Origin: a virus
IMG/VR virus record: IMGVR_UViG_3300007511_000019
DNA length: 64,000 bases
Strand: one strand, 5' to 3'
Numbering within the stretch: the first letter of the stretch is position 1; every line of letters starts with the position of its first letter. Shown here in pieces: positions 21-36,094 of this stretch. The notes under the pieces were generated by a model. That model worked only from the letters and a program-made list of their open reading frames with translations, ran no database searches and was not told the DNA's origin. A program made the position numbers and the translations under genes.

Positions 21-488
21 TTGCTAGACAAGGTTACGGCCAGCAACGTGCACTGGACGGCATACGTTATGCCCCGCAATGCCTGGGAAGGTATTAAGGC
101 GATTCTATACGAGTACGAGCGGAACTTCCTCGACGGGCGACACTATTCCAAGCGACCCCATGAGCACATCCGAACCTTCATGCGAGGATTGGTGCAGAAC
201 GCCGTGGCTCCGCGTGGTCCCCGACCCTTTACGGCTGGCACTTGGTGCGGTCTAGGGGCGGAAATGCTTCAACGAGGCAGCAAATGGCCGAGCGGGCAAG
301 ACGCCTGTACGGCCCTTGCCTGCTTCAACAAAGGATTATGCAAAGTGCATACGGTGGTCAACCGCGTGCAATACACTGGTCGCCATGGAATCCACGGCAC
401 TGACCAGAATTGGAAGGCATGGGGCTACGACGATGTCAAGCTTGACGTCTTCCCCGACGATACTGACCGCAAGGAATTTACGGCATGA
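21..488 (+). CDS. hypothetical protein, possibly truncated at the 5' end by the window edge
   Basis: The ORF is open from the window start with a + strand codon pattern consistent with its neighbours. No recognisable motifs were found. Confidence 0.3.
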   Translation: MLDKVTASNVHWTAYVMPRNAWEGIKAILYEYERNFLDGRHYSKRPHEHIRTFMRGLVQNAVAPRGPRPFTAGTWCGLGAEMLQRGSKWPSGQDACTALACFNKGLCKVHTVVNRVQYTGRHGIHGTDQNWKAWGYDDVKLDVFPDDTDRKEFTA

Positions 489-1525
489 CGACCAGAGCAT
501 TATTGACAGGTGTCGGCGGATTCATCGGGTCGCACACCGCCCAGTGGATTTTGGAACATACCGACTGGGACCTGGTCGGAATCGATAGCTGGCAACTCCG
601 ACATCGAAGCAGCCCGTCGCGACTGCAGGCCGTTCAAAAAAACGTAACACCAGAGCAATGGGATCGTCTCAAGCTAATGCAATGGGATTTATCCCACGAA
701 TTCACAACCCCATTCCGTAACGAACTATTTGACGCCGGACCGATTGACTACTGGATTAACATGGCCAGCGATAGCCATGTTGCTCGCTCTATTGACCGCC
801 CAGGGGCTTGCTGGCTGAACAACGTACACCTGGTCTACAACATGTTGGAACTGGCTCGCGTTGGCAAGCCGCGAGTTTTTATACAGGTTAGCACTGACGA
901 GGTTTACGGCGACTCCGGCTGGAGTGGGCCTGGTCACGCAGAGTGGTCTTCAATGCTGCCTAGCAACCCTTACGCAGCAAGCAAGGCAGCTCAAGAGGCT
1001 CTTGCCACATCTTACTGGCGAACGTACAACGTTCCCGTGGTAATCACCAATACCATGAACGCAGTAGGTGAGTGGCAAGATCCAGAGAAATTCTTGCCAA
1101 TGGTTATCAACAGGCTTACCAACGACAAACCAATCGTGCTGCACGGTGAGTCGGATAACAAACTGGCTAGGCGAGTTTGGCTCGACGCAAAAAACATGGC
1201 GGCGGCACTAGTCTATATCTGTAAACAGGGCCCACCGACTGCTTTCCGGCACCCAGAAGACCGCCCCGATCGATTTCACATAATCGGAGAGACTGAGCTT
1301 AATGTAGGCGAGCTTGTGCACAGAGTGGCGGGCAAGCTAGGTGTGGTCGCCAAAACACGACTGGTACACGGCGACACTGTTCGACCCGGATACGATCGCC
1401 GATACGCACTGCAAGACAACTTATTGCGAGCGAGCGGGTTTAACTACCCGTTCGAACTAGACACAACACTAGACCGTATCATCGAGTGGGTACGGGCGAA
1501 TCCTAACTGGATTTATGAGGACTGA
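485..1525 (+). CDS. NAD-dependent epimerase/dehydratase (NDP-hexose 4,6-dehydratase-like SDR)
   Basis: The N-terminal Rossmann motif is TGVGGFIGSH. A YxxxK-like catalytic region (YAASKAAQE) is present. Length and layout match dTDP-glucose 4,6-dehydratase / UDP-sugar epimerase family enzymes. Confidence 0.75.
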   Translation: MTTRALLTGVGGFIGSHTAQWILEHTDWDLVGIDSWQLRHRSSPSRLQAVQKNVTPEQWDRLKLMQWDLSHEFTTPFRNELFDAGPIDYWINMASDSHVARSIDRPGACWLNNVHLVYNMLELARVGKPRVFIQVSTDEVYGDSGWSGPGHAEWSSMLPSNPYAASKAAQEALATSYWRTYNVPVVITNTMNAVGEWQDPEKFLPMVINRLTNDKPIVLHGESDNKLARRVWLDAKNMAAALVYICKQGPPTAFRHPEDRPDRFHIIGETELNVGELVHRVAGKLGVVAKTRLVHGDTVRPGYDRRYALQDNLLRASGFNYPFELDTTLDRIIEWVRANPNWIYED

Positions 1526-1527
1526 TT

Positions 1528-2154
1528 ATGAGCAACCCCTATGTAGTGGTTGAAGAGTTTGAGCGAGAGGTGGCCAAGTACTGCGGTGCCCCTTATGCGG
1601 TGGCAGTCGATAGTTGCACCCACGCCCTCTTTCTCTGCTGCAAACACGAACACGTAGACAAACAACCTTACATCAAAATTCCGAAGCGGACCTATGTGTC
1701 TGTACCTTGCGAGATCATTCATGCAGGCGGCCGCGTCCGCTTCGCCGACTGGACCTGGTCTGGTGAATACCAGCTTGGTGACACCTGTATTTGGGATTCG
1801 GCCAAGAGATTCACCAGCGGCATGTTCGTACCTGGTCGTATGCAATGCCTGTCCTTCCACTTCTCCAAAATCCTCAACGCCGGTCGCGGTGGTATGATTC
1901 TTCACGACGATCCGGACGCCGATCGGTGGCTCCGTGAAGCTCGCTTTTCGGGACGACATCCGGAGGTGCCACTACGAGAGGATGATATCGAAATGGTGGG
2001 CTGGCACTACACGCTCGACCCTGTCTTCGCAGCAGCAGGCCTTCTACGGCTGAGTCGTTTGCCGGATTACAATGCCGATCAACAGGAAATCTACCCAGAC
2101 CTCTCTCAATTTGCGTGCTTCCAGGGGATGACCGATGAAGTTTCAGCGAGTTAG
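1528..2154 (+). CDS. compact DegT/DnrJ/EryC1/StrS-like PLP-dependent sugar aminotransferase/dehydratase (208 aa)
   Basis: FEREVAKYCGAPYAVAVDSCTHALFL matches the N-terminal DegT block. SFHFSKIL matches the PLP-lysine block (SFHxxK). GWHYTLDPVFAAAGLLRL matches the C-terminal Y-N-L block. The protein is about 170 aa shorter than canonical members. Confidence 0.55.
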   Translation: MSNPYVVVEEFEREVAKYCGAPYAVAVDSCTHALFLCCKHEHVDKQPYIKIPKRTYVSVPCEIIHAGGRVRFADWTWSGEYQLGDTCIWDSAKRFTSGMFVPGRMQCLSFHFSKILNAGRGGMILHDDPDADRWLREARFSGRHPEVPLREDDIEMVGWHYTLDPVFAAAGLLRLSRLPDYNADQQEIYPDLSQFACFQGMTDEVSAS

Positions 2155-2692
2155 CATGGCTATGGGAATTGAGGGGCTGACAACAGTCAAAGAACTCGAA
2201 TTCCTATATGACACGATTCTAAACGAGGTTCCAATTATCGGGTTGGTGGTAGAGCTAGGAACCTTCAAAGGCCGCTCCACCGCCGCTATTTGCGGAGCTG
2301 TAGTCGATCGACCTGGTCACCTATTTGTGATCGGCATCGATCATTTCAAGATGCAGCACCACGGCAAGAATGACCTGTGGACTACCCACAACAACCTGGC
2401 GGCACTGGGGTACTTTCCCGGACTTATGCGAGCCGAATCCACCAAACCTCAGCCCTCCATCAAACAAGTCTCAGCACTGATCATCGATACCGATCACAAG
2501 GCGTCGGTCCTAAACAAAGAGCTAGATGAGTGGCTGCCTAAGATCGTCGATGGTGGTGTGATCATCTTGCATGACTACGGTAGTGCTAAATGGCCCGAGA
2601 TCACCGACGTGGTAGACCAGAGGCTAACCAACAGCTCTGACTGGGAACTTCTCGGCCTGGCCGGGATGATGGTCGCTTTTAGAAAGCTATAA
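2135..2692 (+). CDS. class I SAM-dependent methyltransferase, TylF/MycF-like (macrocin-O-methyltransferase family)
   Basis: The motif GLVVELGTFKGRST resembles the TylF-family SAM-binding glycine-rich block. Downstream acidic residues are present (IDTDH). Confidence 0.55.
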   Translation: MKFQRVSMAMGIEGLTTVKELEFLYDTILNEVPIIGLVVELGTFKGRSTAAICGAVVDRPGHLFVIGIDHFKMQHHGKNDLWTTHNNLAALGYFPGLMRAESTKPQPSIKQVSALIIDTDHKASVLNKELDEWLPKIVDGGVIILHDYGSAKWPEITDVVDQRLTNSSDWELLGLAGMMVAFRKL

Positions 2693-2693
2693 C

Positions 2694-3545
2694 ATGACCG
2701 ACTACCGTTTGCCCGAGGGCAACGCTGAGTTCTGGGAACAACGTATCCAGAAACATGCCAACTCTTCCGACTCTTCCTGGGCTGACATTTTTGCCGTAGA
2801 GAAAGAGCGGGAGTCGTTGATCAGATGGTTGACCCCTTGGCTAACCCCCTACCCGATCACACTCGAGCCTACGCGGGCGTCTGTGATCCGACAAATCGAC
2901 TCATTTCTAGACGCTGGCTGCAACAACGGGCACTCTACTGCGGTTTACCGCAAGAATTTTCCCGAAATTGATTTTTACGGCTGTGATCTAAACCAGCAAG
3001 CGATCGATATAGCCTCAGCCGATTGCCCCAACTACTTCCAGCACGACGTTTGCGAACCCTTTGATCGGCAATGGGACGCCGTGTATACGTCTCGCGTTCT
3101 CTGTAACCTAGGCACTCGAGCCAGACAACATCAGGCGATCAAGAACCTAGCCGATGCAAGCCGCAAGCAGCTGATATTGCAGGAGCCTATTGGCGAGGGG
3201 TTCCGTACGCTGAATGCATTTCGAGTTGAGGTCGGGCTACCTGCGTTACAGATGCCGGAGCAAAATCTCTATCTTAATGGCGAGTTGACAACAAAGTGGC
3301 TACATGACCTAGGCTTTCGCCTGCTTGCTAGGCCATACGACAACCACAGCACCTACTTCGCTATCACCCGCGTTCTCAAGGACAAGTTGAACGTACCTGT
3401 TGCTGGGCAGGCATACACTTCTCAAATCAATAAGCTCGCCGCGTTACTGCCCAGCGTTGGCCAGTTTAGTCCTCACCGGTTTATGGTGTTTTACAATGAC
3501 CGCGAAACTGACGATGGGGTTGCTGACACACCGTCGGCCCAATAA
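2694..3545 (+). CDS. class I SAM-dependent methyltransferase
   Basis: Motif I is LDAGCNNGHS, post-I is YGCDLN, and motif II is DAVYTSRVL. Confidence 0.6.
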   Translation: MTDYRLPEGNAEFWEQRIQKHANSSDSSWADIFAVEKERESLIRWLTPWLTPYPITLEPTRASVIRQIDSFLDAGCNNGHSTAVYRKNFPEIDFYGCDLNQQAIDIASADCPNYFQHDVCEPFDRQWDAVYTSRVLCNLGTRARQHQAIKNLADASRKQLILQEPIGEGFRTLNAFRVEVGLPALQMPEQNLYLNGELTTKWLHDLGFRLLARPYDNHSTYFAITRVLKDKLNVPVAGQAYTSQINKLAALLPSVGQFSPHRFMVFYNDRETDDGVADTPSAQ

Positions 3546-4161
3546 CGTACGACGCGTTGTGAACAGTGTAGCAGCCCAAAGCTGTTCACCGGCTATCTGG
3601 ATGTGGAACAACTCTCCTGACAAGCTTCCTAGCGACCTTGTTGCTAGGTGCGATACGATTATTCGTAGCAGCCGCAATCTGCGGTGCGGAGCTTGGGCCA
3701 GCATGATGGCTCTTTGTGACACCGAGTTCGTTGGCAAAATTGACGACGACCTATCGCTGGCCGATCCGGCAGTCTTGCAGGATTGTTTGGGCTTCTTGGC
3801 CAAGCAGGACGACGATGTCATTATCGGGTCTCACGGGATTGTTCTCGAACCCGACAAGACCTACCGAGAGAGCCCCGGCGTCAACCTACCTAAGGTCGAC
3901 TCGCCGGTGGACATAGTCAAAGGCAGATTTTGGATAGCCCGTAGATCCGCCTTACTCAAAGCACCATTCGGGGCGATTGCCCACGATGGCGACGTGAGCT
4001 GGCCCGGCTTCTTGGCCAACGGAAGAAAGTGTTTTCACTGCGTTCCGGGCATGCTTCACGGTCGCTTTCACAATTTACCCGAAGGAAAGGAAGCGGTGTC
4101 GAGCGGACAGGGGCATTACGAGCGGCGAGAAGTTATTCGTCGTCAATGGTTTCCTTTCTAG
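3497..4161 (+). CDS. glycosyltransferase family 2-like (start chosen at the internal ATG; the tracker ORF begins at 3400)
   Basis: LTMGLLTHRRPNNVRRVVNSVAAQS resembles the GT2 N-terminal block. There is a DXD motif (KIDDDLSL). The 3400 start would overlap the upstream methyltransferase by 145 nt. Confidence 0.45.
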
Positions 4162-4982: not shown

Positions 4983-5459
4983 ATGTACGAGACCCAAACA
5001 AACGTGTCTTCTGGCGTGAACGTGTATCTGTCCGGACCTATTACCGGTGAGGGCTACGACACGGTCACTGACTGGCGAAAAGAAACATCTGACGTTCTAG
5101 CGGGCTACGGAATTACAGCCCTGTCGCCGTTACGACACAAACACTACTTGGCAGGCGAGACTGAGATTGCTCCCTCGTACGAGGAGCACACGATGTCTAA
5201 GCAAAAGTCCATCACTAACCGCGATCGGTGGGATGTGATGCGGTCCGACGTAGTGTTTGTTAACTTGCTCAACACCAATCGCATCTCAATCGGCACGGTG
5301 ATGGAAATCGCCTGGGCTGATGCTTTCCGTAAACCAATCGTCTTGGTGATGGAGCAGGACGGGATGCATTCTCACCCACTCCTCGAGGAGGTCTGTGCGT
5401 TTCATATCGAGACGCTAGAAGAAGGTATCGAGGTTTTGAAGGGCCTTCTGGTCCCGTAA
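4983..5459 (+). CDS. nucleoside 2-deoxyribosyltransferase-like / SLOG-fold protein
   Basis: The N-terminal VYLSGPITG motif is present. The C-terminal block DVMRSDVVFVNL...ISIGTVMEIAWADAFRKPIVLV matches the NDT/LOG-like signature (D..D....SD....DSGT.fElG.A.A.gKPv). Confidence 0.5.
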   Translation: MYETQTNVSSGVNVYLSGPITGEGYDTVTDWRKETSDVLAGYGITALSPLRHKHYLAGETEIAPSYEEHTMSKQKSITNRDRWDVMRSDVVFVNLLNTNRISIGTVMEIAWADAFRKPIVLVMEQDGMHSHPLLEEVCAFHIETLEEGIEVLKGLLVP

Positions 5460-5467
5460 AGGACAAC

Positions 5468-6292
5468 ATGTTTGAACGATTTACCGACAGAGCACACCAT
5501 AGCTTCACCGAAGCCAAGCGTTTTGCCAAACGCCTGCGGCACGAGTACATCGGCGTAGAGCATGTCGTGTACGGTCTGCTCAAAAGCGGTGGCATTGCCC
5601 AGACCGTGCTCAACAACGCTAATGTCTTTGCCGGAGATGTCGAACGATTTATGGCTGCTCGGCTTGGCGACGGTCCTAGCTATATAGTCTATGTGGACAG
5701 CCTACCGAGGACTCCTCGCTGTAAACGTGTGACGGACAAGGCGATAACCTACTCAAGTGACGTGGATGGTCTGTACGTAGGAACTGAGCATCTGCTACTG
5801 GCTATACTGGACGAAGAAGACAGTATGTGGCTTGATCTGCTTAGCAAAGTAGGCTCACGGACTGTTGAGCAGCTTCGCATGGACGTTAGACTGTCGCCCA
5901 GTTCAGCGAAGCCGGTCACCTACATGTTTGGCGTATTTGACCCATTTCACGTGGGTCATTACATGCAGTTGGAGCGTGCTGCCGAGTTGGGCAGCAGCCT
6001 GATAGTCGGCGTCCAGTCTGACGCTGCCGTCGAGAACGAGCATGGAAACCCGCCGCTCTTGACACTTTCATCGCGTAGGCGGCTGCTTAACGCGTTGCCT
6101 GTTGTAGATGCAACGGTAACCTATACCGAACCCGACCAGTCCAGTGTACTTAGCGTTTTAGCTCCGAGCATCTTTGTCTGCGACCCGCTTTACGATCAGG
6201 AGCAAACTCTGGCATACTGCAAAGACAATAACATCCGCGTTGAGCGAATGTTGTCGGAATCGGTGCCATGTAATCCTCGTTCGATGTCGTAA
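5468..6292 (+). CDS. fusion of a Clp N-terminal repeat domain and a cytidylyltransferase-like nucleotidyltransferase
   Basis: Residues 1-140 contain two Clp_N repeats (YIGVEHVVYGLLKSGGIAQTVL and YVGTEHLLLAILDEEDSMWLDLL). The C-terminal half has GVFDPFHVGHYMQLERAAELGSSLIVGV, matching the (H/T)xGH motif of glycerol-3-phosphate cytidylyltransferase / RfaE domain II enzymes. Confidence 0.65.
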   Translation: MFERFTDRAHHSFTEAKRFAKRLRHEYIGVEHVVYGLLKSGGIAQTVLNNANVFAGDVERFMAARLGDGPSYIVYVDSLPRTPRCKRVTDKAITYSSDVDGLYVGTEHLLLAILDEEDSMWLDLLSKVGSRTVEQLRMDVRLSPSSAKPVTYMFGVFDPFHVGHYMQLERAAELGSSLIVGVQSDAAVENEHGNPPLLTLSSRRRLLNALPVVDATVTYTEPDQSSVLSVLAPSIFVCDPLYDQEQTLAYCKDNNIRVERMLSESVPCNPRSMS

Positions 6293-6306
6293 GCCCTATA
6301 CGGCTT

Positions 6307-6340
6307 CACACCGCCCTGATGGTATACTAGGGGCGGTGTG
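6307..6340 (+). terminator. 10-bp GC-rich hairpin (CACACCGCCC / GGGCGGTGTG) 15 nt after the 5468-6292 stop; the loop carries an extended -10-like TGGTATACT
   Basis: Perfect inverted repeat at 6307-6316 and 6331-6340. There is no strong U-tract, so its role as a terminator is tentative. Confidence 0.35.
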
Positions 6341-6619
6341 AGTTGGAGTGGTTTGAGTGCGGTCAGTAACAACCACTCTTAGCCGCTGTTGGTTTTGCAT
6401 AGTGGGGCCAACTTTGGCGACGGTCTCCCTTACCCCGCACGTAGACCGTTCTGGTAGTTAGTGGACGACGGCCTTATGGCCTCGAGGGTTTTTGCGTAAG
6501 GGCGTATCCTCCCCTTGAAATCGAACGGCGTTATAACCTGTGATACGGAGCCTTTGGGGTTCGTTGCTTACCTGAAAGCTTAAACGGTCAGGGTGTGACT
6601 ACCTAGCACCATTTTTATT

Positions 6620-6931
6620 ATGAACAAACCAAAACAAGACGAACTCAATCGAATGGCCATGTGCACTACACGTGGGCTAATCGAGGCTGTACTACACCGG
6701 TTTGCAGAAAACCTGGGGCCAGATTTAGCCGCTCCGGAGACCCCCGACTCCCTCCGCAAACTCGAGAAGTCTATTCAACAAGGAGCCGAATTCGTAGACC
6801 GGTTAGAGAACTCTTTCCAGGTCAACCCACAAGGTACCCATTGTCGTTTTACGCTACACTATCCTGGCACCGACCTGGATTTTGACTTCGAAGGGAAGCT
6901 CGTGGTCAACTCGCTCCCTAGCTCTGAATAA
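6620..6931 (+). CDS. hypothetical protein
   Basis: The ORF is 103 aa with an AT-rich leader and no obvious Shine-Dalgarno sequence. Confidence 0.35.
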   Translation: MNKPKQDELNRMAMCTTRGLIEAVLHRFAENLGPDLAAPETPDSLRKLEKSIQQGAEFVDRLENSFQVNPQGTHCRFTLHYPGTDLDFDFEGKLVVNSLPSSE

Positions 6932-10307: not shown

Positions 10308-10600
10308 TGTTCATTCTGATTCGCTTGCTGATTGTTTTGGGGCTAGTCGCGGCCATCGTGTGGTTAGCCACTAAGCTGACGCATAGCCCATGGTTTGGAC
10401 GCCTTGTTGACGTATTTCTGGGGCACAAGCCCACTGACAGTGAATTGACTGGCAACATCGACGAAGCTCGAGCCGACCTTGCGAACAGGGTCGAGGCTAA
10501 CCGTCTTGAAGCCGAACGTCTTGACGCATCGCGTAGACGTCTGGAGGCACACGGCCTTGCAGACAAACAAGACCATGCAAATCCTGGCAAACCCAGGTAG
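10307..10600 (+). CDS. small membrane protein with one TM helix and a coiled-coil tail (start at the internal ATG)
   Basis: MFILIRLLIVLGLVAAIVWLA forms a TM segment, followed by a charged helical tail. The gene sits immediately upstream of the SPFH gene. Confidence 0.45.
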   Translation: MFILIRLLIVLGLVAAIVWLATKLTHSPWFGRLVDVFLGHKPTDSELTGNIDEARADLANRVEANRLEAERLDASRRRLEAHGLADKQDHANPGKPR

Positions 10601-10613
10601 GAGCAATTCACCC

Positions 10614-11960
10614 ATGGAACGTAAGCACTTTGCCTACGCAGCCGCCGCCGTTCTCGGCGTCGTCGCACTGATTGTTTTGTTTGGAAATATGGGGTACAAC
10701 CGCGACGACCAGTGGCAAATCCACCAGTCTGTTACGGGCAAGATCACGGTGATTGACCGTGGCGGTTACTACCTCAACATGTTCGGTACCGTAACTGACT
10801 ACCCGCGTTACCGTGACTCGTTCTACTCGGCCCACCACAAGGAAGGCGGTGAAGAGGACGATTCGATTCGGTGCACCTTTAACGACGGCGGCACCGCTAA
10901 GGTGTCGGTGTACGTTAGGTTCTCCACTCCCCCAGAGGAGGACCAACGTCGAGCATTCCACCGTGTGTATTCTGCGAACATTGACAACACCTCGCAGGCG
11001 GTACGGGCTCACCTTGTTAACTGCGTTAAAGCGGCGGCACCGCTAATGTCTGCTAGCGAGAACCAGGCGTCACGCAAAGCCGAGTTTGCTCAAGTCATTC
11101 AGAACATGATGCAAGACGGCCTATACGTGATGCGACAAACAAGAGTTACTCTCGAAGATCAGGCGTTGATCGAAGTAGAGGCCAACGCGGACGGTAAGGC
11201 TCCCGTTCTTCGCGAGAAGCCTACCGAGGTTATGGCGACAGAGATCGTGCGAGATACCGAGACAGGTAAGCCGCTGATCGCTGAAGCATCGCCACTGACC
11301 AAGTACGGTATCGGGGTTGAGCAATTCTCGGTTACCGATATTGACTATGATCCAGAGACCCTCAAACAGTTCGCTGCGAAGAAAGAATCGTTCTTGCTGG
11401 CGGAACAGGCTAAGGCCCAACGACAGCAGTTCGTACAAGAGAAGCTGAAGATCATCGCTGAAGGTGAATCTGAAGTTGCCCGTATCGAGCAAGAGGGAAA
11501 CAAAGAGAAGATGGCCGCGACAGTATCCGCCGAGAAAGAGGCGGCTGTGGCAATCATCAACAAAGATAAAGCCGTGACCGAGGCTACACAAAAGGTCGAG
11601 GTGGCCCAGCAAGAAAAGCTGGAAGCCGACACCCGATTTGAGATTGCCGAAGTCCAGGTCAAGATCGCGGAAGAGGATAAGAAGGCCGAGATTGCCGTCG
11701 CCGAAGCCAAACAAAAGGCTCTGGAGATCGGCGGTGCTCTGTCGGAAGAAGAACGCGTTCTTGCAGAGATCGCTGCCGAACGCGATGCTAAGGTCGCCAC
11801 AGCCCTTGCTGGGTTAAAGGTACCAGGCGTCGTCATCGTCGGCGGTAAAGGTAGTGACTCAGGTGGTGGCGGAGAAAATCTCCAAAGCAATCTGATCAAC
11901 CTTACACTGTTGCGAGCCCTGGGGATCATTCCCAAAGACGCGACGAAGCCCGTCGAGTAA
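10614..11960 (+). CDS. SPFH/band-7 (flotillin/YqiK-like) membrane protein (start at ATG 10614 with RBS AGGTAGGAG)
   Basis: An N-terminal TM segment (AAAAVLGVVALIVLF) is followed by an SPFH-like globular region. The long C-terminal E/A/K/Q-rich coiled coil (AEQAKAQRQQFVQEKLKIIAEGESEVARIEQEG...) is typical of flotillin/HflKC-type proteins. Confidence 0.65.
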   Translation: MERKHFAYAAAAVLGVVALIVLFGNMGYNRDDQWQIHQSVTGKITVIDRGGYYLNMFGTVTDYPRYRDSFYSAHHKEGGEEDDSIRCTFNDGGTAKVSVYVRFSTPPEEDQRRAFHRVYSANIDNTSQAVRAHLVNCVKAAAPLMSASENQASRKAEFAQVIQNMMQDGLYVMRQTRVTLEDQALIEVEANADGKAPVLREKPTEVMATEIVRDTETGKPLIAEASPLTKYGIGVEQFSVTDIDYDPETLKQFAAKKESFLLAEQAKAQRQQFVQEKLKIIAEGESEVARIEQEGNKEKMAATVSAEKEAAVAIINKDKAVTEATQKVEVAQQEKLEADTRFEIAEVQVKIAEEDKKAEIAVAEAKQKALEIGGALSEEERVLAEIAAERDAKVATALAGLKVPGVVIVGGKGSDSGGGGENLQSNLINLTLLRALGIIPKDATKPVE

Positions 11961-11992: not shown

Positions 11993-12028
11993 GCACCGGG
12001 ACCCAAAGATCCCGGTGCTTTTGCTTTT
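11993..12028 (+). terminator. rho-independent terminator after the SPFH gene
   Basis: The stem is GCACCGGGA / TCCCGGTGC with an 8-nt loop, followed by TTTTGCTTTT. Confidence 0.7.
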
Positions 12029-12051
12029 AACAACCATGGCTAGGAGTACGG

Positions 12052-12453
12052 ATGCCAACAACCAACCAACTGGTTCGCAAGAACCGCAGAAAGCCAAGGA
12101 ACAAGTCCAAGCACCGGCTGATGCAGGAAAACCCGCAGCGGCGAGGAACAGTGCTAAAGGCTTGGGTGATGTTGCCGCGTAAGCCCAACTCAGCTAACCG
12201 CAAGGTGTGTCGGGTCCGGTTTGCCGATGGCAACGAGGCGACGTGCCACATTCCGGGCGAAGGCCACAACATCGTGGAGCACAACACCGTGCTCGTGCGA
12301 GGCGGCGGCCCACCTGATCTGTCCGGCGTTAAGTACCGTGTTGTTCGCGGTACGCTTGACTGTATCGGCGTTACCGAAGGTGCTAACAAGCAGCGGCGAA
12401 ACCAAGGCCGCAGCAAGTACGGTTCGCCAAAACCGTCCAAAGCAAAGAAGTAG
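12052..12453 (+). CDS. rpsL: ribosomal protein uS12 (S12) homolog, bacterial type
   Basis: The match to bacterial S12 is near full length: [14 protein letters not shown]..., [51 protein letters not shown], and SKYG. An RBS (AGGAG) lies 9 nt upstream. Confidence 0.85.
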
Positions 12454-15214: not shown

Positions 15215-15664
15215 ATGAATCATCACGATGAACATCCAGAAGGGGCAGCCATGGACGGTAAAATCATTGAAGTCTTGGACCGGCTCGCTGATCGGCTACA
15301 CGATCAGGAACAACCGTCCGGCCTGTTGTCGATCGAAAAGATCGTCGCGGCGGTCATCATGTTACTTGTCACCGGTGTATGTCTTTGGGTTGGATCATCC
15401 TTGACCACGATGACTCAAAAGGTGATCGAGCTTCAGGCCAACGTTTCACACCAGAGCCAGACAGTCGCCGAACTCAAGGCGGAGGTTCGCGACTTACGTA
15501 CTGGGGCACTCAGTACCAGCACGAATAACACACAAAACATTCAACTCATTCTCGAGCGAATGAAAGCCGACGACGCCCGAGAGATTCGCGACGACGAAAC
15601 CATCGCAGAGATCCGTCGACAGATCCAGGCATTACAGGAACAAGTTAGAGGTAACAAACCGTGA
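15215..15664 (+). CDS. membrane protein with a coiled-coil region
   Basis: A central TM helix (VAAVIMLLVTGVCLWVGSSL) is flanked by charged helices. Confidence 0.4.
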   Translation: MNHHDEHPEGAAMDGKIIEVLDRLADRLHDQEQPSGLLSIEKIVAAVIMLLVTGVCLWVGSSLTTMTQKVIELQANVSHQSQTVAELKAEVRDLRTGALSTSTNNTQNIQLILERMKADDAREIRDDETIAEIRRQIQALQEQVRGNKP

Positions 15665-16176
15665 GCCTGTATCGTCCCAGTACAGTAACGACGCCAGGCC
15701 AGGCCCTCTACGAGCTGTCTCACGACTTCGTGAAGGTCTCCAGCAAACCATGGCTGTCGTATGGGCTGGCAGGCAAACTCTATATCTCCAACTCCGGCTG
15801 GGGCCTGCTTAGCGTCCCAAACGCCCTTGTTCACGGTGCTTTCGACGCCCTGGAAGAACCCGGCGTAGAGCTGCCGCGACAGGACAGCGGGACATTTAAT
15901 GCCCATATTTCTGTCTTTCGCAAGGACGAAATCGATAAAATCGGGGGATCTGGCAAAATCAGGGAACGCGGTCACACTTTTCGGTACACCCTCGGACCGG
16001 TAAAATGTGTGAAGCCCTATGGTTGGGACGAAATGTCCAAAGTGTGGATGATCGAGGTCCACTCACCCGAACTACAGAACCTGCGGAAAAGCTACGGGCT
16101 ATCTGCGTTGCCCAAGGACAATAGGTTCAAGTTCCATATCACCATAGGAGTCCGACGCAAGAACGCATTCAAGTAA
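15661..16176 (+). CDS. 2H phosphoesterase superfamily protein (LigT / cyclic phosphodiesterase-like)
   Basis: Two H-x-T/S-x motifs are present (AHISVF and FHITIG), spaced about 90 aa apart as in LigT/CPDase. The GTG start overlaps the upstream stop (GTGA). Confidence 0.55.
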   Translation: MSLYRPSTVTTPGQALYELSHDFVKVSSKPWLSYGLAGKLYISNSGWGLLSVPNALVHGAFDALEEPGVELPRQDSGTFNAHISVFRKDEIDKIGGSGKIRERGHTFRYTLGPVKCVKPYGWDEMSKVWMIEVHSPELQNLRKSYGLSALPKDNRFKFHITIGVRRKNAFK

Positions 16177-18729: not shown

Positions 18730-20509
18730 ATGCCCAATATCTTGCTGCCTGAACTCAGCACTGACGCCGAAGAGATGTCTATGCTCGGATTCCCGATCGG
18801 GAATTTGGAGAAGGTATCATCACCCCTAACAGGGGGTTTGTGGCCAGAACTTCTTTCGTATCTTCCCGTTCGGGAAAATCGCCTCCATGGGGAAATTCAC
18901 GAAAAGAGGGGTGAAGACGCGAAAGGCATTCCAGACCGAAAGTACTATGGCGACCTATCTAGAGTTTCTCCGCAGTTACTGGACTTCGTTATCCAACGGC
19001 ATCTTGCCGAGAGAGCTGGCCCTCACTTTGATTTCCGATTCGGAGACCCCAAAGGGCTCTTCTCCTGGGCAACCAGAAAACCGATGCCCGGCATTGGCGG
19101 ACGAACCGCCCTATTCCAGCAGCCCATGCACTCCTACAAGTACAAAGATTGGGAGGGCACAATTCCTAGCGGACGCTATGGGGCTGGACGGGTTAAGAAA
19201 CAAGAGGATGGCAAACTTCTCATTACCAAAGCCAGTCCGGAATCTATCCACTTCACCATGGCCCACAAGAAGCACCCGCAACGCTTCGTGATGATCAAAC
19301 CGAAGGGCTGGAAAGATAAAGACTGGTTGCTTATCAACAAGACCCCGACTGAGCAATTGCCGTACGAGAAAGTACGGTACAAAAAGATTCCAGCGGAGCA
19401 GGTCGACAAGTACATCGGCCAAATGCAAAAAGGCGATACTCTGGAGGCAAAGGTTGACGGGGCCTCCTCGCTGATTAAACTAATGAAAGAGGGCGTCGAG
19501 GTGATGTCCTACCGTACGTCCAAGGAAACGGGCCGACCGATACTTCACACAGAAAGATTGCTTCATGGTCTCCCCGCTTACAACATCCCAGACGACCTGG
19601 TTGGCACGGTACTTAAAGGCGAACTCTACGGAGTGCGACCTGGAGGATCCGGAGATGGTGATGGCTCCGCTGACAAGGGAGACCCTCTACGCGGCCATGT
19701 TGCTGATGAACCTCAGCTGGCGGAAGGGAGCTTTGAACCTGACGGAGGGCGAGAAAGAGATACTCGAGTTTCAGAGAGAGCAGACCAGGAGGATGTTCCC
19801 GGAACTGTTAGGCCCCAAGACGACGGACTCGGAGAATATCTTCAAGAGGCTCTTTCCGCCGGTACCGGTAGACCAACTCAGCGAGAGCGAGTACTCCGCC
19901 CTCAAGAACTTGGAGGACTGCTCAACTCCTCCGTCGCCAAATCAATCCAAGACCAGCGAGAGCGACAAGTAAAACTCAGAAATGCCGTTTACGATATCCA
20001 ACAGCTAGGCAACAAACCAATCGACTGGCATGTGACTCCCCGGCTCGAGCGTAGGGATATGATTCGAAAAGTTCTTGAGCACCTACCGCCCGAGACGTTT
20101 CACATCTCAGAAGCCGCAGAGACGCCCGAAGCCGCCCAGAGACTCTGGCAACAAATACAGTCTGGTGAGCACCCGATTACTCGAGAGGGTGTAGTCATGC
20201 ATCCGCTACACGGTCCCCCCACGAAAGGAAAAATTTTAGAAGACGTAGACGTGTATTATCGCCAAGCATTTCCGGGCAAAGGTAAACACGAAGGATCGGG
20301 TGCTGGCGGCTTCGAATACTCACTCACACCTGACGGGCCTATAATTGGTAAGGTAGGAACAGGTTTCACGGACGAGTTACGCAGGTCCCTTTTCGAGAAC
20401 GATCAAGACTATGCCGGAAGGATTGCACGAATCCAATCGCAAGAACAGCTTCCTAGCGGAGCTTATCGAGCACCGAGCTTTCTGGCTTTTCACGAGGATC
20501 AACCTTATG
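18730..20509 (+). CDS. LigD-type 3'-phosphoesterase domain fused to an ATP-dependent polynucleotide ligase (no in-frame stop, so the 3' end is uncertain; the tracker ORF runs to 21927)
   Basis: PE domain: GPHFDFRFGDPKGLFSWATRKPMPG...DWEGTIPSGRYGAGRV matches the LigD phosphoesterase signature. Ligase motifs: I is KVDGAS, III is LKGELYG, IIIa is AVYDI, IV is EGVVMH, plus an OB fold (GKVGTGFTDE...RAPSFLAFHED). A low-complexity insert of about 110 aa lies between motifs III and IIIa. Confidence 0.6.
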
Positions 20510-21046
20510 CAACAACGAAACAGTCTAGGCAGGTTTCTGCAAGGACACAAATCCAGAACGACTCACGGACAAAGTGGAACGAAAACATACAAGGTGTGGG
20601 CGGGGATGAAACGCCGCTGCCTGGACCCAAAACGGCACAATTACAAACACTACGGAGGACGAGGCATAAAGATATGTGCAAGGTGGCGGGACTCCTTCGA
20701 GAACTTTCTGGAAGACATGGGAACGTGCCCAGACGGTTATTCGCTGGAGAGGGAGAACAACGACAAAGACTACTGTCCCACGAATTGCACTTGGATACCT
20801 CTCGAGAAACAGGCAGCAAACACTCGGAGCAACGTGTGCTTGACTTTTCGCGGCGAAACCAAGCATCTGACACAATGGGCGAGAGAGTCGGGAATCAGGC
20901 AGCAGACATTGACCAGGCGTCTTCAGCGAGGTTGGTCCGTGCAGCGTGCACTAACCGAGAAGCCAGTAGTAGGCAAAAATCAATTCTCGTCCAGCCAGAC
21001 CTCGGACTCACGTCTGAAAAACTCGCTGAACTCGGGATCGGAATAG
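20507..21046 (+). mobile_element. free-standing HNH/AP2-like homing-endonuclease gene with a C-terminal helix-turn-helix (+1 frame relative to the ligase ORF)
   Basis: YKVWAGMKRRCLDPKRHNYKHYGGRGIKICARWRDSFENFLEDMG...GYSLERENNDKDYCPTNCTWIPLEKQAAN is typical of phage HNH homing endonucleases, and LTQWARESGIRQQTLTRRLQRGWSVQRAL is an HTH tail. The ATG at 20507 coincides with the expected C-terminus of the ligase OB domain. Confidence 0.6.
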
Positions 21047-21049
21047 ATC

Positions 21050-21927
21050 CCGACGAGCACACAGCCCTGGAAAAAGAAGCCTCACTTGCTAGACTTCTGA
21101 CACTACCTGGCGTCAAGCACCTACTTCGCTGGCAGTCAAAGCTTGGTCGGAAGGCTAACGACTACTTGTGGAACAAACTGCTAACCGCAAATCGCCGAAC
21201 CGCGTTGGGCACCGCAGGCGTCGTAGGCGGTGCCGGTTACGGCGGCTACCGGATGGGCCAAGGCGACTGGCAAACTCCAGGCGACATTCTACACGACCCG
21301 ATCATCCAAAAGCCGCTGGAATGGTCTACAGTTATCCCGGAGAAATATAACATCCCATTGTGGACAGCAGCAGGTATTGCTGGTGGCCGTAGTGTGGGCC
21401 GTCACGCGGCCCAAGCCGCCGTAGGCAGTGCCAACGCGTTGCGGCGGCTAGTTACGATGCAGCCCTTATCGCAAGCGTTGTCTGGTCAAATCGGTAGTAC
21501 CCTTGGTGTTGCTGGGCCTATCTTAGGCGGTGCCAAAGGCGGCGTCGGAACCTACTACACTCACCGGGCAGTAGAGAAAGCCAGGGAAGCTGCTGAGCAG
21601 CCAACAGTACCTGAAGTCAAGCACAGCACAGATTCGCACTACCTGCGAGCCTTCTCCCAAGTAAACCCTGCACACCTTTACCGAGGCGACCAGTCTGCTC
21701 TGCGTAACGCTAGCAACTACATCAACGCCTTGTTAATACAGGGTCGGCAAAACGTCGCCAAAGCCTATAATACTGATAGCCTCAACCTGGCCTTGGCTCC
21801 GATGGGGCAACGTTGGCAACGAGCCTTGGCCAGTCTTGAGGGTTACGATCCCATCATGTCCAATCCCCTTGATCGGGTGTTGCACATGATGCCAGCAACC
21901 CCGCAGCTGAGTCGTCCGTACGTATGA
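21050..21927 (+). CDS. Gly/Ala-rich putative membrane/virion protein encoded by the 3' part of the 18730-21927 ORF (start undefined)
   Basis: Segments such as TAGVVGGAGYGG, AAGIAGGRSVG and GVAGPILGGAKGG resemble the downstream gene 21953-22792. There is no ATG near the 5' end, so an alternative start or continuation of an upstream exon is possible. Confidence 0.3.
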
Positions 21928-23961: not shown

Positions 23962-24234
23962 ATGACCACTGCAACGATGCTCACCGTTATCGGCCAACGA
24001 CTACTCATTCGCCGCGATACTGCCCCAACAAAGAGCGAAGGCGGTATTCATCTACCCGAGCAGGTACGAGAGAAGCTGAGTGAGGGTAACGTAATCACCG
24101 CCGGTGCCAAGTGCGAACACGAATTTACCGAGGGCCAACGTGTGGTCTTCAACCCTTACTCGGGCGATACCGTCAAAATCGACGGAGAAGATTTGTTGGT
24201 CGTCCGCGAAGACGATATCCTACTGGCGTTCTAA
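23962..24234 (+). CDS. groES: co-chaperonin GroES (Cpn10) homolog
   Basis: The 90-aa protein matches GroES at IGQRLLIRRDTAPTKSEGGIHLPE, GNVITAGAK and GQRVVFNPYSGDTVKIDGEDLLVVREDDILLAF. An RBS (AAGGA) lies upstream. Confidence 0.75.
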   Translation: MTTATMLTVIGQRLLIRRDTAPTKSEGGIHLPEQVREKLSEGNVITAGAKCEHEFTEGQRVVFNPYSGDTVKIDGEDLLVVREDDILLAF

Positions 24235-25116: not shown

Positions 25117-25894
25117 CCAACCTACCTTCTACGACGCTGTACAACACGTCACTGCTAAGGCTTTGCAACGTAAAGCTCTAGCTGGAGCAGGTACAGCGGC
25201 ACTAGCTGGTCTCGGTACTGGTGCAGGTCTACGAGGTATCCTCGGCCTGTTGGAAATGAGCAGGCAAGGTGCCCAGCCGCCCCAGGCTCAAGCCCCTACC
25301 GGTCAGATCGAGGTCCCGGTGGACGACGAGAAGATCGCTGCCTTGGCGGATTTCCTCAAAGGCGACTATGCCAAATCGACTTCTGGTGTGCCTTGGGCCA
25401 TTCCTGCCGCTGTTGGTGCCGGTGCTGCCGGAGCGTACGGTGGTTGGAAAGGTATCGACGCACTGCTCGAGCAAAGACGAAAAGGCGAACTAGAGGCTGA
25501 GCTTGAAAAAGCCAAGATGGACTACGAAGCTGCCTTGTCTGGCGACACCAAGTTAGCGGAAGACCTGGACGAACTCTACGACACAGTAGAGAAACAAGCT
25601 GTCTCCGCGTCAGACGCAGCAGGAACGGCTACAGGACTCTACGGAGTCTACGGCGGTACTTCAGCTTTGTTGGCCGCCATTATGGCTTACCAATACGGTA
25701 AGAAGCGACAACGCCGGTCCTTGCTTGAAGCGGCACAAGAGAAACGCCGCCGACAACGCTTTGCACGACAACCTGTGCCGATCCAAGTACGGCCAGTGCC
25801 TAAGCAGCATGAGCAGGACCCGCTGCAGGCAAGTAAGTCCCCGTTCCAGGCCGCACCTAGCTTGGACGAACAAGAAGATCAACTGGATAAGTAA
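25058..25894 (+). CDS. hypothetical Ala/Gly-rich membrane-associated protein with a charged C-terminus (start uncertain; the tracker start is 24986)
   Basis: An RBS (AAGGAA) precedes the ATG at 25058. It is TAATG-coupled to the RNAP gene at 25894. Confidence 0.35.
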   Translation: MTNLALVLKASRQSSEKSANQPTFYDAVQHVTAKALQRKALAGAGTAALAGLGTGAGLRGILGLLEMSRQGAQPPQAQAPTGQIEVPVDDEKIAALADFLKGDYAKSTSGVPWAIPAAVGAGAAGAYGGWKGIDALLEQRRKGELEAELEKAKMDYEAALSGDTKLAEDLDELYDTVEKQAVSASDAAGTATGLYGVYGGTSALLAAIMAYQYGKKRQRRSLLEAAQEKRRRQRFARQPVPIQVRPVPKQHEQDPLQASKSPFQAAPSLDEQEDQLDK

Positions 25895-28800
25895 TGCCAA
25901 ACATTCTGTCACCGCCCTCCGGCGTGCTAAGCGGGACCAAACCTGCTCTGCCGCAACCGGTACGTCCTCTGCAAAAAGAGGAACCGGAAAAGCGAGAGTT
26001 CGGTGACGCTTTGGCCACGCGGCGGCTTATCTACAACAACGTGCTGGCGTCGACTCAAACACTTGAGCCGATCTCTAACCAACGCCACACGCTACAACTG
26101 CGTGATGTTAAATACGCTGACGATCCCAAGTTCTCGTACAAGCAGCAAAAGGAAGCCATCCTCGGCGGTAAGAGTCTCAACCGTCGACTGCAAGGCACCT
26201 GGGAGCTGTCGGATAACGAAACTGGCGAAGTGCTTGACAGCAGGCCCGGCGTAGTTGCTCGTGTACCGCACCTGACGGATCGCGGTACGTTTATCCACAA
26301 CGGTAACGAGTACACCCTGTCCAACCAGATGCGGTTGCGGCCAGGCGTGTTTACCCGTGTCAAAGACAATGGAGAAATTGAAGCCCACGCAAACCTATTG
26401 CCGGGTAAAGGCGTCAGCCACCGGTACTTCCTAGACCCCGAGAAGGGTATTTTCCACATGCGGATGGGGCAGGCGAAAATACCGCTGATGCCTCTTCTCA
26501 AGTCGCTCGGAGCAACAGACAAACAATTGCAGGAAGCATGGGGCAACGAACTGTGGCAAGCTAACGCTCAAAAGGACAACCCAGGAACCCTATCGAAGCT
26601 GTACCAAAAACTGGTACGTAAGATTGACCCTGATGCCGACGAGCCAGCTAAACGCCTAGCCGTTGCCGAAGTCATGGAGAAAATGGAACTGGACCCCGAG
26701 GTTACACAACGAACCTTAGGTAACAGTTTCAACAGGATGGGGTTGGATGCGATTCTAGCCACCACCAATAAATTGCTCGCAGTATCCCGTGGAGAACAGG
26801 AGGTCGATGACCGTGATCATCTCGCTTATCAAAATGTCCTGGGCCCAGAAGATTTGTTCGCGGAACGTATCGCAAAGGATTATGGCGGACTCCGCCGACA
26901 ACTTTTGCATAGATCTAGCTTTAAGGGAGACTTGTCAGCCGCACAGTCCGGTATGCTAAGTCGCCAGTTAGAAGCCGCGTTACTCCATTCTGGATTAGGG
27001 CAAAGCCTTGAAGAAATCAACCCAGCAGACATCTTCGACAAACAATCAAGAATCTCACGTCTCGGTGAGGGCGGCATCCCGTCCATCGACGCCGTGCCAG
27101 ACGAAGCTAGGGCGGTTCAGCCGAGCCACTTGGCTTTCATGGACCCAGTACGCACGCCGGAATCATTTAAGGTCGGTGTGGATGTGCATATTGCCAACAC
27201 GGCTCGTAAAGGATCTGATGGCCGAATTTACTCACCGTTCGTTGATCCTCGTAGCGGAAAAGAGGTGTGGAAGTCGCCCCAGGACCTTGCAGATCTCACA
27301 GTCGCTTTTCCCGGCGAAATGCGTAGGGAAACTAAGCGGGTTGGTGCCATGCAAGGCGGCAAACTCAAGTTTGTCCCAAAACAGTCTGTGGACCTGGTTG
27401 TGCCCACTTTCGAAAACGCTTTCTCGCCGCTAGGTAACATGGTTCCCATGAAGTCAGCGGTCAAGGCCCAGCGTATGGCTATGGCTAGCCGTATGCTCAC
27501 ACAGGCCTTGCCGCTCGAGAACGCAGAGAGTCCGCTTGTACAGACCGGCATCTCTGGCGAAGAGGATACAAGTTACGAGCAGCGATATGGTCGTAAGATG
27601 GGTGCCGTCTTCGCCGACAAGCCAGGACGAGTAGTTTCAATAAGCGACCAAGGGATTAAGGTCAAGTACGACGACGGAACTACAGAAGAGAAGCAGCTCT
27701 ATAACAACTTCCCGTACAACCGCAAAAGCGTAACCGGTGACACTCGTATTGTGATCCGACGCAAGAATGGCGAACTGTGGACTGGATCAATCGATAAGTA
27801 CCACTGGGAAGATAGCGACCAAGTGCAGTCGGTGGACCCAGACTCCAAGCAGTCTGCCTGGAAACGCGTCACAGGTTACATTACGCACTGCAACGACAAA
27901 CAGCTGTTGCGGATAACTACTAAATCCGGGAGATCGGTCGTGGTCACGGAAGACCACAGCCTTATTACGCTGGACAAACACGGAGAACTGGTACCGGTCT
28001 ACCCTAAAGACTGCGAGATCGGGCTAACCCGCCTGCCTGTAGCCATGTTGCAGGGTCATCGATCTCGGCGACATGGCCAGGAGATTAGCAAAGACCCGAG
28101 CGGCATTCTGTGGGGGCTGTACGTAGCCGAGGGGCACTGTCCGCCTACCCAACCAGGGCTAGTTAACATTGCAGTAGAGCCAGACGACCGTGCAGAACAG
28201 GTGTTGGAAGTGGCTCGTCAGTGCGGTTATGAGGCGTACCGCAATGGCGGTAACGTATGCTTTACTGACCACGCCTTCGCCGCCAAGGCGACTGAGCACT
28301 TTGGCCACCTGTCGCACAACAAGCGAATTCCCGCCTGGGTGCTTGGTACTCCCGTCTGGTTTCGGGAAAGTTTTGTTCAAGGCTATATGGCTGGCGACGG
28401 GTGCTTGTGGGAGGACTCAAACGGGTCGCTACAGCTGCAGGCCGTTACGGTTTCTAGAGAGCTTCGCGACGGATTTGTCGAGTTGCTGTTAAGCCTAGGC
28501 ATTATGACGACGCTTTTCGATGCACCTAGAAAGCACCTCAACGACAACTGGCGTGACGCGTACGGTTGCCGCATAATCAGTAGCCACGTAGGGCGACTTC
28601 GTAAGTGGTTCTACTACGCAGACCGTGAGCGACAACTCCACGAGCTGCTAAAGCCTACGTATCGAGCCGCAAGCTTTGACCTGGTCCCGGTAGCCGCCGA
28701 GGCCCGTAAACTTCTGTACAAGGGTTATATCGGGACGGTTCCTAGCTATGTCTATAAGACCGCCAACCAGGGAGCAGTTGCTAAGCACCGGTTGAAAGAA

Positions 28801-32792: not shown

Positions 32793-33045
32793 GCAATTGC
32801 GGGCTCGAATGGCCCGACCAGCTACCCCCACACTCAAAGTTCTGTCTGTCTGGGTACAGCACGGAGTAGAACAGCAGTTACTGCCCATAGCATCTGGCGA
32901 TGACGACGCCCAGCTGCGTGGACTGCTTGCAAATTGGGAGCAGCAACTGGACTACGGGGAAATGGTCGCTTCAAACATGCGGTATCTAGGGCGGCACCGG
33001 ATTGTAACAGTTCCTTTCATCGGACGGCAAAATGGCAAAGCGTAA
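32761..33045 (+). CDS. hypothetical protein
   Basis: The 94-aa ORF overlaps both neighbouring genes. Confidence 0.25.
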   Translation: MALQGGFGVPEQLRARMARPATPTLKVLSVWVQHGVEQQLLPIASGDDDAQLRGLLANWEQQLDYGEMVASNMRYLGRHRIVTVPFIGRQNGKA

Positions 33046-36000: not shown

Positions 36001-36094
36001 GACCGGAACCAGCTTTGTGGCCGGTCGGGCGAAGGCCGTTGACTTTGGTCGTACAGGTATTATCCAAACTCCGAAGGAGCCTCCCAAACCATGA
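33032..36094 (+). CDS. rpoC: RNA polymerase beta' C-terminal (rpoC2-like) subunit, interrupted by an intein
   Basis: [12 protein letters not shown]...KKGLSKLL matches beta' at AILNEILP...KKAISKML. Further matches are [25 protein letters not shown] to [41 protein letters not shown] to TRRLVDVAQDLVVTEDD, and [23 protein letters not shown] to [23 protein letters not shown]. Confidence 0.85.
   Translation: [1020 protein letters not shown]
33665..34843 (+). mobile_element. intein (393 aa) with a LAGLIDADG endonuclease domain in RNAP beta'
   Basis: It begins [10 protein letters not shown] (Cys1, Hint block A) directly after the GFL of the GYL|TRRL-equivalent site, and ends ...NGAIVSN with Ser at +1. 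LAGLIDADG-like motifs are [14 protein letters not shown] and [12 protein letters not shown]. There is no penultimate His. Confidence 0.65.

Follow-up and report, generated by a model that had tools for sequence, protein, structure and literature searches.

A phage protein joining a ClpC-type N-domain to a decayed nucleotidyltransferase fold: a possible ATPase-less mimic of host ClpC

The virus record IMGVR_UViG_3300007511_000019 of IMG/VR (hereafter the window, the whole stretch of 64,000 nucleotides that was analyzed) encodes at 5468..6292 (+) a protein of 274 residues in which a Clp_N domain, a copy of the docking domain of the bacterial unfoldase ClpC, is joined through a short linker to a domain of nucleotidyltransferase fold. 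This fusion is a genuine two-domain phage protein. From sequence comparisons it is tentatively proposed that the Clp_N half imitates the N-domain of host ClpC without bringing an ATPase, as a decoy or a sensor mounted on a decayed nucleotidyltransferase scaffold. A role in sensing or disturbing proteolysis in the host is considered more likely than one in sugar activation.

Architecture and authenticity of the fusion

The open reading frame (ORF) opens with an ATG at 5468 and closes with a stop codon ending at 6292 (+). A Shine-Dalgarno-like AGGA, read from the sequence at 5460-5463 (+) and lying 4 nucleotides before the ATG, directly follows the stop codon of the upstream gene, beyond which the fusion ORF begins after 8 nucleotides. 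From N- to C-terminus, the protein comprises a ClpC-type Clp_N domain with two repeats (residues 1-135, 5468..5872 (+), by Pfam and phmmer), a variable interdomain linker (residues 136-147, 5873..5908 (+), recognized by comparison with the second known version of the protein, P0002), and a nucleotidyltransferase-fold domain of the HIGH/HxGH superfamily (the C-domain, residues 148-274, 5909..6289 (+), by Pfam PF01467, AlphaFold2 (AF2) modeling and Foldseek). JGI, ENA and Logan assemblies together contain 14 metagenome contigs that encode the identical protein (P0001); in the 10 that were examined, the gene shows 0 nucleotide differences. P0002 has 278 residues, 71% identity and the same two-domain layout, with a linker that is 4 residues longer in frame. 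An assembly artefact is ruled out, as those 10 contigs all carry the same ORF and P0002 has the same fused frame.

The Clp_N half is of ClpC type

Domain mapping with profile hidden Markov models (HMM) from Pfam matched Clp_N (PF02861) in two stretches with 61.1 bits (E 1.2e-16, cutoff 20.7), in agreement with the two Clp_N repeats that had been read here in an earlier note made from the nucleotide sequence; P0002 scores 65.3 bits. In phmmer searches of PDB structures, residues 1-134 are collinear with the solved N-domains of ClpC and ClpC1 (E 8e-18 to 1e-16), and the alignment opens at a common N-terminus, MFERFTDRA. Since the ClpC and ClpC1 structures match and none of the ClpA or ClpB N-domain structures reached E 0.01, the domain is regarded as ClpC-type, and ClpA-style binding of ClpS is therefore not the first expectation. 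No AAA domain was detected in the 274-residue protein with Pfam or NCBIfam, the matches to the full-length ClpB, ClpA and ClpG models of NCBIfam being confined to the first ~130 profile positions and far below cutoff, and no helix-turn-helix domain was detected with Pfam.

In ClpC, the N-domain is where adaptors, phosphoarginine-tagged substrates, and unfolded chains are received. By alignment to the Bacillus subtilis structure 5hbn, residues T6, E31, T82, and E107 of the fusion protein are kept as counterparts of ClpC phosphoarginine (pArg)-site residues; the ClpC pArg-site equivalents T7, E32, and E106 are present, together with a conserved pArg-site threonine equivalent to ClpC2 T99. The roles of these residues in the pArg sites of ClpC and ClpC2 have been described (PMC12583610, PMC13345244), and the N-domain is central to the regulation of ClpC (PMC12583610). 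Tandem Clp_N proteins (P0003-P0006) are the nearest relatives of the N-domain; of P0003 and P0005, both inspected for phage context, P0005 is surrounded by bacterial genes. The closest Clp_N relatives are thus cellular tandem Clp_N proteins, the context being readable for P0005.

The C-domain keeps the fold and has lost most of the catalytic signature

The C-domain, which directly follows the Clp_N repeats, contains GVFDPFHVGH, the GxFDxxHxGH signature recognized in the earlier note, and matches CTP_transf_like (PF01467) of Pfam over residues 153-239 with 45.4 bits (E 1.2e-11, cutoff 21). The HxGH motif within it, H161-V-G-H164, is encoded at 5948-5959 (+). The general cytidylyl/adenylyltransferase model of NCBIfam (TIGR00125, cyt_tran_rel) is also matched above its cutoff (50.8 against 27.7 bits), whereas the specific models are not: rfaE_dom_II (TIGR02199) reaches 62.6 bits against a cutoff of 181.5, with profile positions 10-110 of 144 matched, and TagD (TIGR01518) 25.2 against 165.4. 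An assignment as a bona fide TagD or HldC/RfaE-II enzyme was rejected on these two cutoffs and on the missing catalytic features described below. The type proposed earlier, a glycerol-3-phosphate cytidylyltransferase or RfaE-II enzyme, is therefore retained at the level of the cytidylyltransferase-like superfamily, with RfaE-II/HldC as the nearest branch, and abandoned for the specific families, the signature being lost.

Structural comparisons point in the same direction. BpHldC (5x9q) matches the C-domain with E 1e-10 in a PDB search, and HldC homologues are 34-41% identical over ~75% of the domain in a profile search that is biased to HldC, its seeds being fragments of HldC, ECT, and 3glv; the C-domain by itself, used as query in a word-index search for homologues, gave 0 matches and did not recover even the protein itself. 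An AF2 model of the C-domain only (predicted local distance difference test (pLDDT) 81, predicted template modeling score (pTM) 0.75, with pLDDT <50 at the start of the domain) contains a complete b1-b5 Rossmann core, right behind which the chain ends in a disordered tail of 10-14 residues, the C-terminal helix being absent from the model. The best Foldseek match is HldC 5xf2 (template modeling (TM) score 0.77, 34% identity), followed by Fom1, TagD, ECT, and CCT. Both HMM and PDB alignments of the domain end near residue 245.

In cytidylyltransferases, HxGH and RTxGISTT bind the nucleotide, and RTxGISTT starts the C-terminal helix (PMC8262930, PMC6060094). His14, His17, and Arg113 of TagD are essential and its Lys44 and Lys46 bind the substrate phosphate (PMC8262930), while the active site of BpHldC is centered on Lys69 and needs a large induced-fit movement of the C-terminal helix (PMC7993394). 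In the window protein HxGH is intact (H161, H164). The expected position of RTxGISTT, set by matching the secondary structure of the model to TagD with IRVE(RM) as strand b5, corresponds to residues 262-269 (6251..6274 (+)) and reads LSESVPCN (LAEEVSYN in P0002), and the protein stops 5 residues later. The equivalent of TagD Arg113 is Leu, those of Lys44 and Lys46 are Glu and Gly (Gln and Gly in P0002), those of BpHldC Asn30, Asn59, Lys69, and Lys116 are F154, Q183, E190, and C238, and ~17 residues present in HldC are missing. The dimer-interface motif RYVDEVI appears as PVVDATV in the window and PFVDATV in P0002; in sequence its V-D core is kept, as in HldC, 3glv, and ECT. By alignment and model, the C-domain thus has the Rossmann core of the HldC/TagD/ECT nucleotidyltransferases and keeps only HxGH of their catalytic and substrate-binding signature; it is a nucleotidyltransferase fold but not a convincing enzyme.

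Selection falls mainly on the Clp_N half

The comparison between the window protein and P0002 separates the two halves. The Clp_N half is 89% identical, with a ratio of nonsynonymous to synonymous substitution rates (dN/dS) of 0.09; the linker is 17% identical, differs in length by 4 residues, and has a dN/dS of ~0.8; and the C-domain is 57% identical, with a proportion of nonsynonymous differences (pN) of 0.28 against 0.81 for synonymous ones (pS), all of these measures coming from one pairwise comparison in which the synonymous sites of the C-domain are saturated. The C-domain thus appears to be still constrained, yet much more diverged than Clp_N. In P0002 the HxGH motif is lost (FHVGH becomes FSIAD), and the PF01467 score of its C-domain, 20.3, lies just below the cutoff of 21. 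The blocks that are invariant between the two versions, GVFDPF, YMxLERAA, PPLLT, SRRRL, VDATV, and NNIRVERML, are pocket and interface segments, whereas the catalytic histidines vary, a pattern that would fit retained binding and oligomerization or assembly without catalysis. Synonymous divergence climbs along the locus, from 0.40 in the upstream gene to 0.76 in Clp_N and saturation in the C-domain, and therefore suggests a mosaic boundary near the linker.

Distribution of the fusion and of ATPase-less Clp_N proteins

The fusion proved as unusual as had been supposed at first reading. Both halves occur together only in P0001 and P0002, among the 120 best word-index matches and among the best 150 matches of an exhaustive HMMER search that covered 1.8 billion representative proteins; a weaker-scoring fusion outside these 150 is possible. 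In that search 18,024 representatives match at E<=0.001, across which the matched half (Clp_N or C-domain) was not tallied, and the best 150 all match via Clp_N. Beyond these two, scanning IMG/VR and the GTDB species genomes by pattern and by protein turned up no relative. Four scans of IMG/VR viral contigs, two with proteins and two with degenerate DNA (patterns NNIRVERML and GVFDPF...YMxLERAA), brought up nothing related to either the fusion or its upstream neighbor, and a scan of genome contigs with the C-domain alignment gave none either. A scan of metagenome contigs with the two-sequence alignment and the pattern MFERFTDR yielded no new fusion, the matches being mostly ordinary ClpC genes. 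A fold search of BFVD returned ordinary viral cytidylyltransferases, none annotated with Clp_N, and tblastn of the C-domain against phage genomes gave marginal matches only, to the HldE-like gene of P-TIM68.

The accompanying view that a Clp_N domain is rare outside AAA+ chaperones did not hold. Among the best 98 relatives, all of which have Clp_N, an AAA lid is present in 2 and no AAA+ domain in the other 96; these are multi-Clp_N arrays, with up to 8 Clp_N stretches (~four N-domains) tabulated in one protein, or fusions to other domains, including UVR, HTH_17, GerE, a sigma-54 activator, alpha/beta hydrolases, a thioesterase, TIR_2, NUDIX, HIT, and a phosphoribosyltransferase. Stand-alone Clp_N structures are found in the PDB (ClpC2, a ‘Double Clp-N motif protein’ and a ‘Clp amino terminal domain protein’), and phages encode Clp_N-only proteins as well: gp251 of Mycobacterium phage Myrna has 235 residues with Clp_N at 118 bits and no other domain, an uncultured phage of 595 kb (LR756511) has one of 208 residues, and the PHROGs family phrog_35667 unites phage Clp_N-only proteins (Myrna gp251/Phabba). 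The fusion is thus new in its partner domain, non-AAA+ Clp_N fusion proteins being already known. Separately, a complete ClpA/ClpC-like AAA+ unfoldase of 824 residues, bearing no relation to the fusion, is encoded on the viral contig IMGVR_UViG_3300049740_002954 (L012, 9977..12451), directly after a DNA polymerase III alpha-like gene.

A putative decoy or sensor of the ClpC N-domain

In the reading that is tentatively preferred here, the selected function would reside in the Clp_N half, because selection falls there (89% identity and dN/dS 0.09, against 57% in the C-domain and an essentially unconstrained linker). The protein, made during infection, would compete for or sense whatever docks on the ClpC N-domain; candidate targets are pArg-marked proteins, adaptors of the MecA or McsB type, and the contacts by which the N-domain keeps ClpC at rest. 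As an outcome, phage proteins may be shielded from ClpCP, or the protease may be deregulated. The nucleotidyltransferase-derived half would serve as a ligand-binding and dimerizing scaffold that renders Clp_N bivalent, rather than as a sugar-activating enzyme, because the catalytic apparatus is eroded: RTxGISTT, the C-terminal helix, and the lysines are gone, and P0002 is without HxGH. The proposed mimicry is further based on the retention of the ClpC pArg-site residues T6, E31, T82, and E107, on the precedents of ClpC2, the abundant ATPase-less multi-Clp_N proteins and the phage Clp_N-only proteins, and on the phage carrying a Cpn10/GroES homologue but no Clp ATPase or ClpP in the window. The Cpn10/GroES homologue, of 90 residues, is a second proteostasis-related gene, recognized in precomputed Pfam annotation at ~23962..24234 (+) (12010-12282 in the sister contig L097); for the window as a whole, there is no record of a Clp ATPase, ClpP or arginine kinase.

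Of the two roles suggested in the earlier note, a tether for a sugar-activating enzyme is consequently weaker than a decoy for Clp, because the C-domain fails the TagD and RfaE-II tests and P0002 is without HxGH; the decoy is a plausible candidate role. A more far-reaching version, which is unlikely as it stands, would have large phages use an ATPase-less, probably dimeric ClpC receiving domain against proteolysis, built on a nascent pseudoenzyme that possibly reads a nucleotide. Such a protein would soak up pArg-tagged phage proteins or ClpC adaptors, or pry ClpC from its resting state.

Several points weigh against this interpretation. The main weakness of all ClpC-directed models is that they presuppose a host with ClpC, an arginine kinase, or MecA-like adaptors. 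The window copy retains HxGH and its gene lies in a sugar-modification island, so that residual or altered catalysis is possible. The threonine and glutamate site residues belong to the general Clp_N repeat signature and would be weak evidence for pArg binding. The dimerization assumed for the scaffold is taken from the behavior of the family. The AF2 model rests on the HldC alignment and may be biased towards the HldC fold. Finally, as only two sequences are available, the selection and ‘lost motif’ arguments hang on a single comparison, with saturated synonymous sites in the C-domain.

Genomic neighborhood

The window is part of a large phage, with nearly all genes on one strand and a GC content of ~54%. 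The gene directly upstream of the fusion (4983..5459 (+)) encodes a nucleoside 2-deoxyribosyltransferase-like protein of 158 residues (Pfam PF05014, 41.5 bits), whose best PDB matches, BlsM (5vto) and MilB, two N-glycosidases of cytidine monophosphate (CMP) and hydroxymethyl-CMP, are weak (E 1e-3). The catalytic-Glu motif GTxxEIxWA is retained as GTVMEIAWA, and the product may act on nucleotides. This gene precedes the fusion gene directly, with an 8-nucleotide gap, in all loci, including L007 and L011. Sister contigs have, a few kb upstream, a gene for a deoxy-CMP deaminase (L001, 2201-2731). Just past the fusion stop codon, a GC-rich hairpin of 13 bp (6305..6342 (+), RNA fold -30 kcal/mol, z -2.95) has no U-run and was not called in a terminator scan; it is followed by ~280 nucleotides without a listed ORF, the next ORF starting at 6620, and may mark the end of a transcription unit or act as an mRNA stabilizer.

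The surrounding sugar-modification island holds genes for an RmlB-like dehydratase, a DegT-like aminotransferase, two methyltransferases, GT2-like proteins, an RmlD-like reductase, and a GNAT protein. The DegT/DnrJ/EryC1-type aminotransferase ORF (1528..2154 (+)) has 208 residues against a profile of 360 positions, matches in two stretches, and may be truncated or degenerate. Between the window (485..4161) and L007 (1097..4671) a cassette is swapped: in place of the RmlB-like, DegT-like, two methyltransferase, and GT2-like genes, L007 has two different methyltransferases, a radical-SAM/SPASM protein, and two genes without a Pfam match, the flanks being identical and the fusion gene and the 2-deoxyribosyltransferase-like gene staying in L007. 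The fusion gene is therefore not tied to one sugar pathway. The island also holds a Band_7/SPFH protein (10479..11960 (+), 448 residues as called) and a 2H-SAK (2H phosphoesterase-like) protein (15661..16176 (+)).

Elsewhere in the window, two genes of multisubunit RNA polymerase type, a 1885-residue beta/beta'-like fusion (25894..31551 (+)) and a 1020-residue Rpb1_5-like gene (33032..36094 (+)), suggest that the phage is of jumbo type and has an RNA polymerase of its own; both genes carry intein/homing-endonuclease domains (Intein_splicing, LAGLIDADG_3, and a faint Hom_end_hint). A phrog_1645 virion protein is encoded, as is a full-length homologue of ribosomal protein uS12 (12052..12453 (+), 133 residues, Ribosom_S12_S23 82 bits in Pfam), which matches bacterial uS12 structures with E 5e-38 in phmmer. 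The uS12 gene is identical in the sister contigs compared, differing annotations reflecting gene calling on identical DNA. Part of an ORF of 1065 residues (18730..21927 (+)) weakly resembles ATP-dependent DNA ligases (phrog_114, E 1e-14), and the gene calls in L097 divide this stretch into several shorter genes.

Alternative explanations

The most serious alternative, possible although doubtful, is that the C-domain still functions as an atypical nucleotidyltransferase and provides the sugar island with an activated precursor, Clp_N localizing or regulating the enzyme, for example through partner docking or a response to pArg. The intact HxGH and the scores of the window copy above the Pfam and TIGR00125 cutoffs agree with such a role, as do the RmlB-like, DegT-like, methyltransferase, GT2, and RmlD-like neighbors, the overall purifying selection on the C-domain, and the joining of Clp_N to real enzyme domains elsewhere (NUDIX, HIT, TIR, phosphoribosyltransferase, hydrolases). 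The second signature motif, the C-terminal helix, and all substrate-phosphate lysines of TagD/HldC are nevertheless absent, and the sister-phage version, P0002, dispenses with HxGH. The neighboring deoxysugar genes are of the deoxythymidine diphosphate (dTDP)-hexose type, a pathway that needs an RmlA-type enzyme and not a HIGH-type nucleotidyltransferase, and the fusion gene stays in L007 despite the swapped sugar cassette.

Improbable, and overlapping with the preferred decoy or sensor, is a ligand-gated device in which the decayed pocket binds a nucleotide or nucleotide-sugar and Clp_N relays or receives the signal, or in which the pocket sequesters a host signaling nucleotide. The invariance of the pocket-lining blocks alongside dispensable catalytic histidines would suit it, ClpC2 offers a precedent in which pArg binding is coupled to a change of oligomeric state (PMC13345244), and Clp_N is fused to TIR, NUDIX, and HIT elsewhere; the proposal is, however, purely inferential, and the protein bears no signature of any known sponge family.

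More improbable still is a two-gene nucleotide module in which the upstream BlsM/MilB-like enzyme and the nucleotidyltransferase fold act in sequence, for example from a nucleoside monophosphate via (deoxy)ribose-5-phosphate to a nucleoside diphosphate-(deoxy)ribose, or to a base-exchanged nucleotide, with Clp_N as an accessory. The two genes adjoin across the 8-nucleotide gap in every locus, the divergent L011 and the cassette-swapped L007 included, the upstream protein keeps its catalytic-Glu motif, and the hairpin behind the fusion gene suggests that the pair closes a transcription unit. All loci nonetheless come from one closely related phage lineage, in which adjacency may simply be inherited, and no unfused example of the pairing was found elsewhere in the scans of viral and genome contigs; the phosphate-binding residues for a sugar-phosphate acceptor are absent, and the similarity of the upstream gene is weak. 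An artefact, whether two genes fused by misassembly or a frameshift or the leftover 5' end of a Clp ATPase gene that was split or truncated, is hardly credible: it has the rarity of the architecture in its favor and nothing more, and it is refuted by the identical ORF from different samples and assemblers, by the frame of P0002, and by the absence of an AAA+ module downstream or elsewhere in the window.

Implications

Were the decoy or sensor role true, the phage would have a tool directed at the ClpC N-domain, a site targeted by cyclomarin, rufomycin, and ecumicin and exploited by BacPROTACs, and the few known ATPase-less Clp_N regulators, such as ClpC2, would gain a virus-encoded member. If it counteracts proteolysis, it would represent a new class of phage anti-proteostasis protein, a natural ‘Clp_N decoy’. 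Conversely, an active enzyme would mean a HIGH-type nucleotidyltransferase working without the second signature motif. The protein may also exemplify an enzyme domain recycled as a scaffold, with HxGH kept in one allele and lost in the other, and these two natural variants make the question of catalytic versus structural function directly testable. Practical value is limited for now, the family consisting of two sequences from one uncultured phage lineage.

Relationship to known systems

The N-terminal half is most similar to the N-domains of ClpC from B. subtilis (5hbn) and ClpC1 from Mycobacterium tuberculosis (3wdb/6cn8), with which residues 1-134 align at ~35-40% identity and share the two-repeat fold signature and the threonine and glutamate residues of both pArg sites. 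Unlike these unfoldases, the fusion protein is phage-encoded and lacks the AAA+ modules, the M-domain, and the ClpP-binding loop, and the cyclomarin- and rufomycin-contacting Phe80 is replaced by Arg. The C-domain finds its best match in sequence and fold in HldC/RfaE domain II, with which it has GVFDxxHxGH, the xSD strand, and the VD of the putative interface motif in common, but is devoid of the RSTT motif, the C-terminal helix, and the equivalents of Lys69, Lys116, Asn30, and Asn59. With the GCT, ECT, and CCT enzymes (TagD 1coz, ECT 3elb, CCT 3hl4) it has the Rossmann core and HxGH in common and, with ECT, a PPxxT loop (HKGPPVFT in ECT, EHGNPPLLT in the fusion); it differs from them in the absence of RTxGISTT and of Lys44/Lys46 and in the Leu at the position of Arg113.

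Among proteins that have a Clp_N domain without an ATPase, the plant ‘Double Clp-N motif protein’ (4y0b) is a stand-alone example. The Myrna gp251/Phabba and LR756511 proteins are likewise phage ClpC-like N-domains without an ATPase (34-35% identity over ~130-140 residues), although their C-terminal extensions of ~65-95 residues contain neither a Pfam domain nor a nucleotidyltransferase fold, and no function is annotated in their records. The closest functional analogy is provided by ClpC2 of mycobacteria and Streptomyces (8ad9, 9p2p, 8b9o), a non-AAA+ protein with no ATPase, whose core is a ClpC-like N-domain. Through its binding of pArg and of antibiotics directed at ClpC1, ClpC2 serves as sensor and sponge (PMC13345244). 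It has an N-terminal DNA-binding part and a C-terminal Clp_N domain with a dimerizing C-terminal helix, whereas in the fusion protein Clp_N is N-terminal and its partner is a nucleotidyltransferase fold. The similarity to ClpC2 (E 4e-5) is much weaker than that to ClpC, and the resemblance is one of function and not of family membership.

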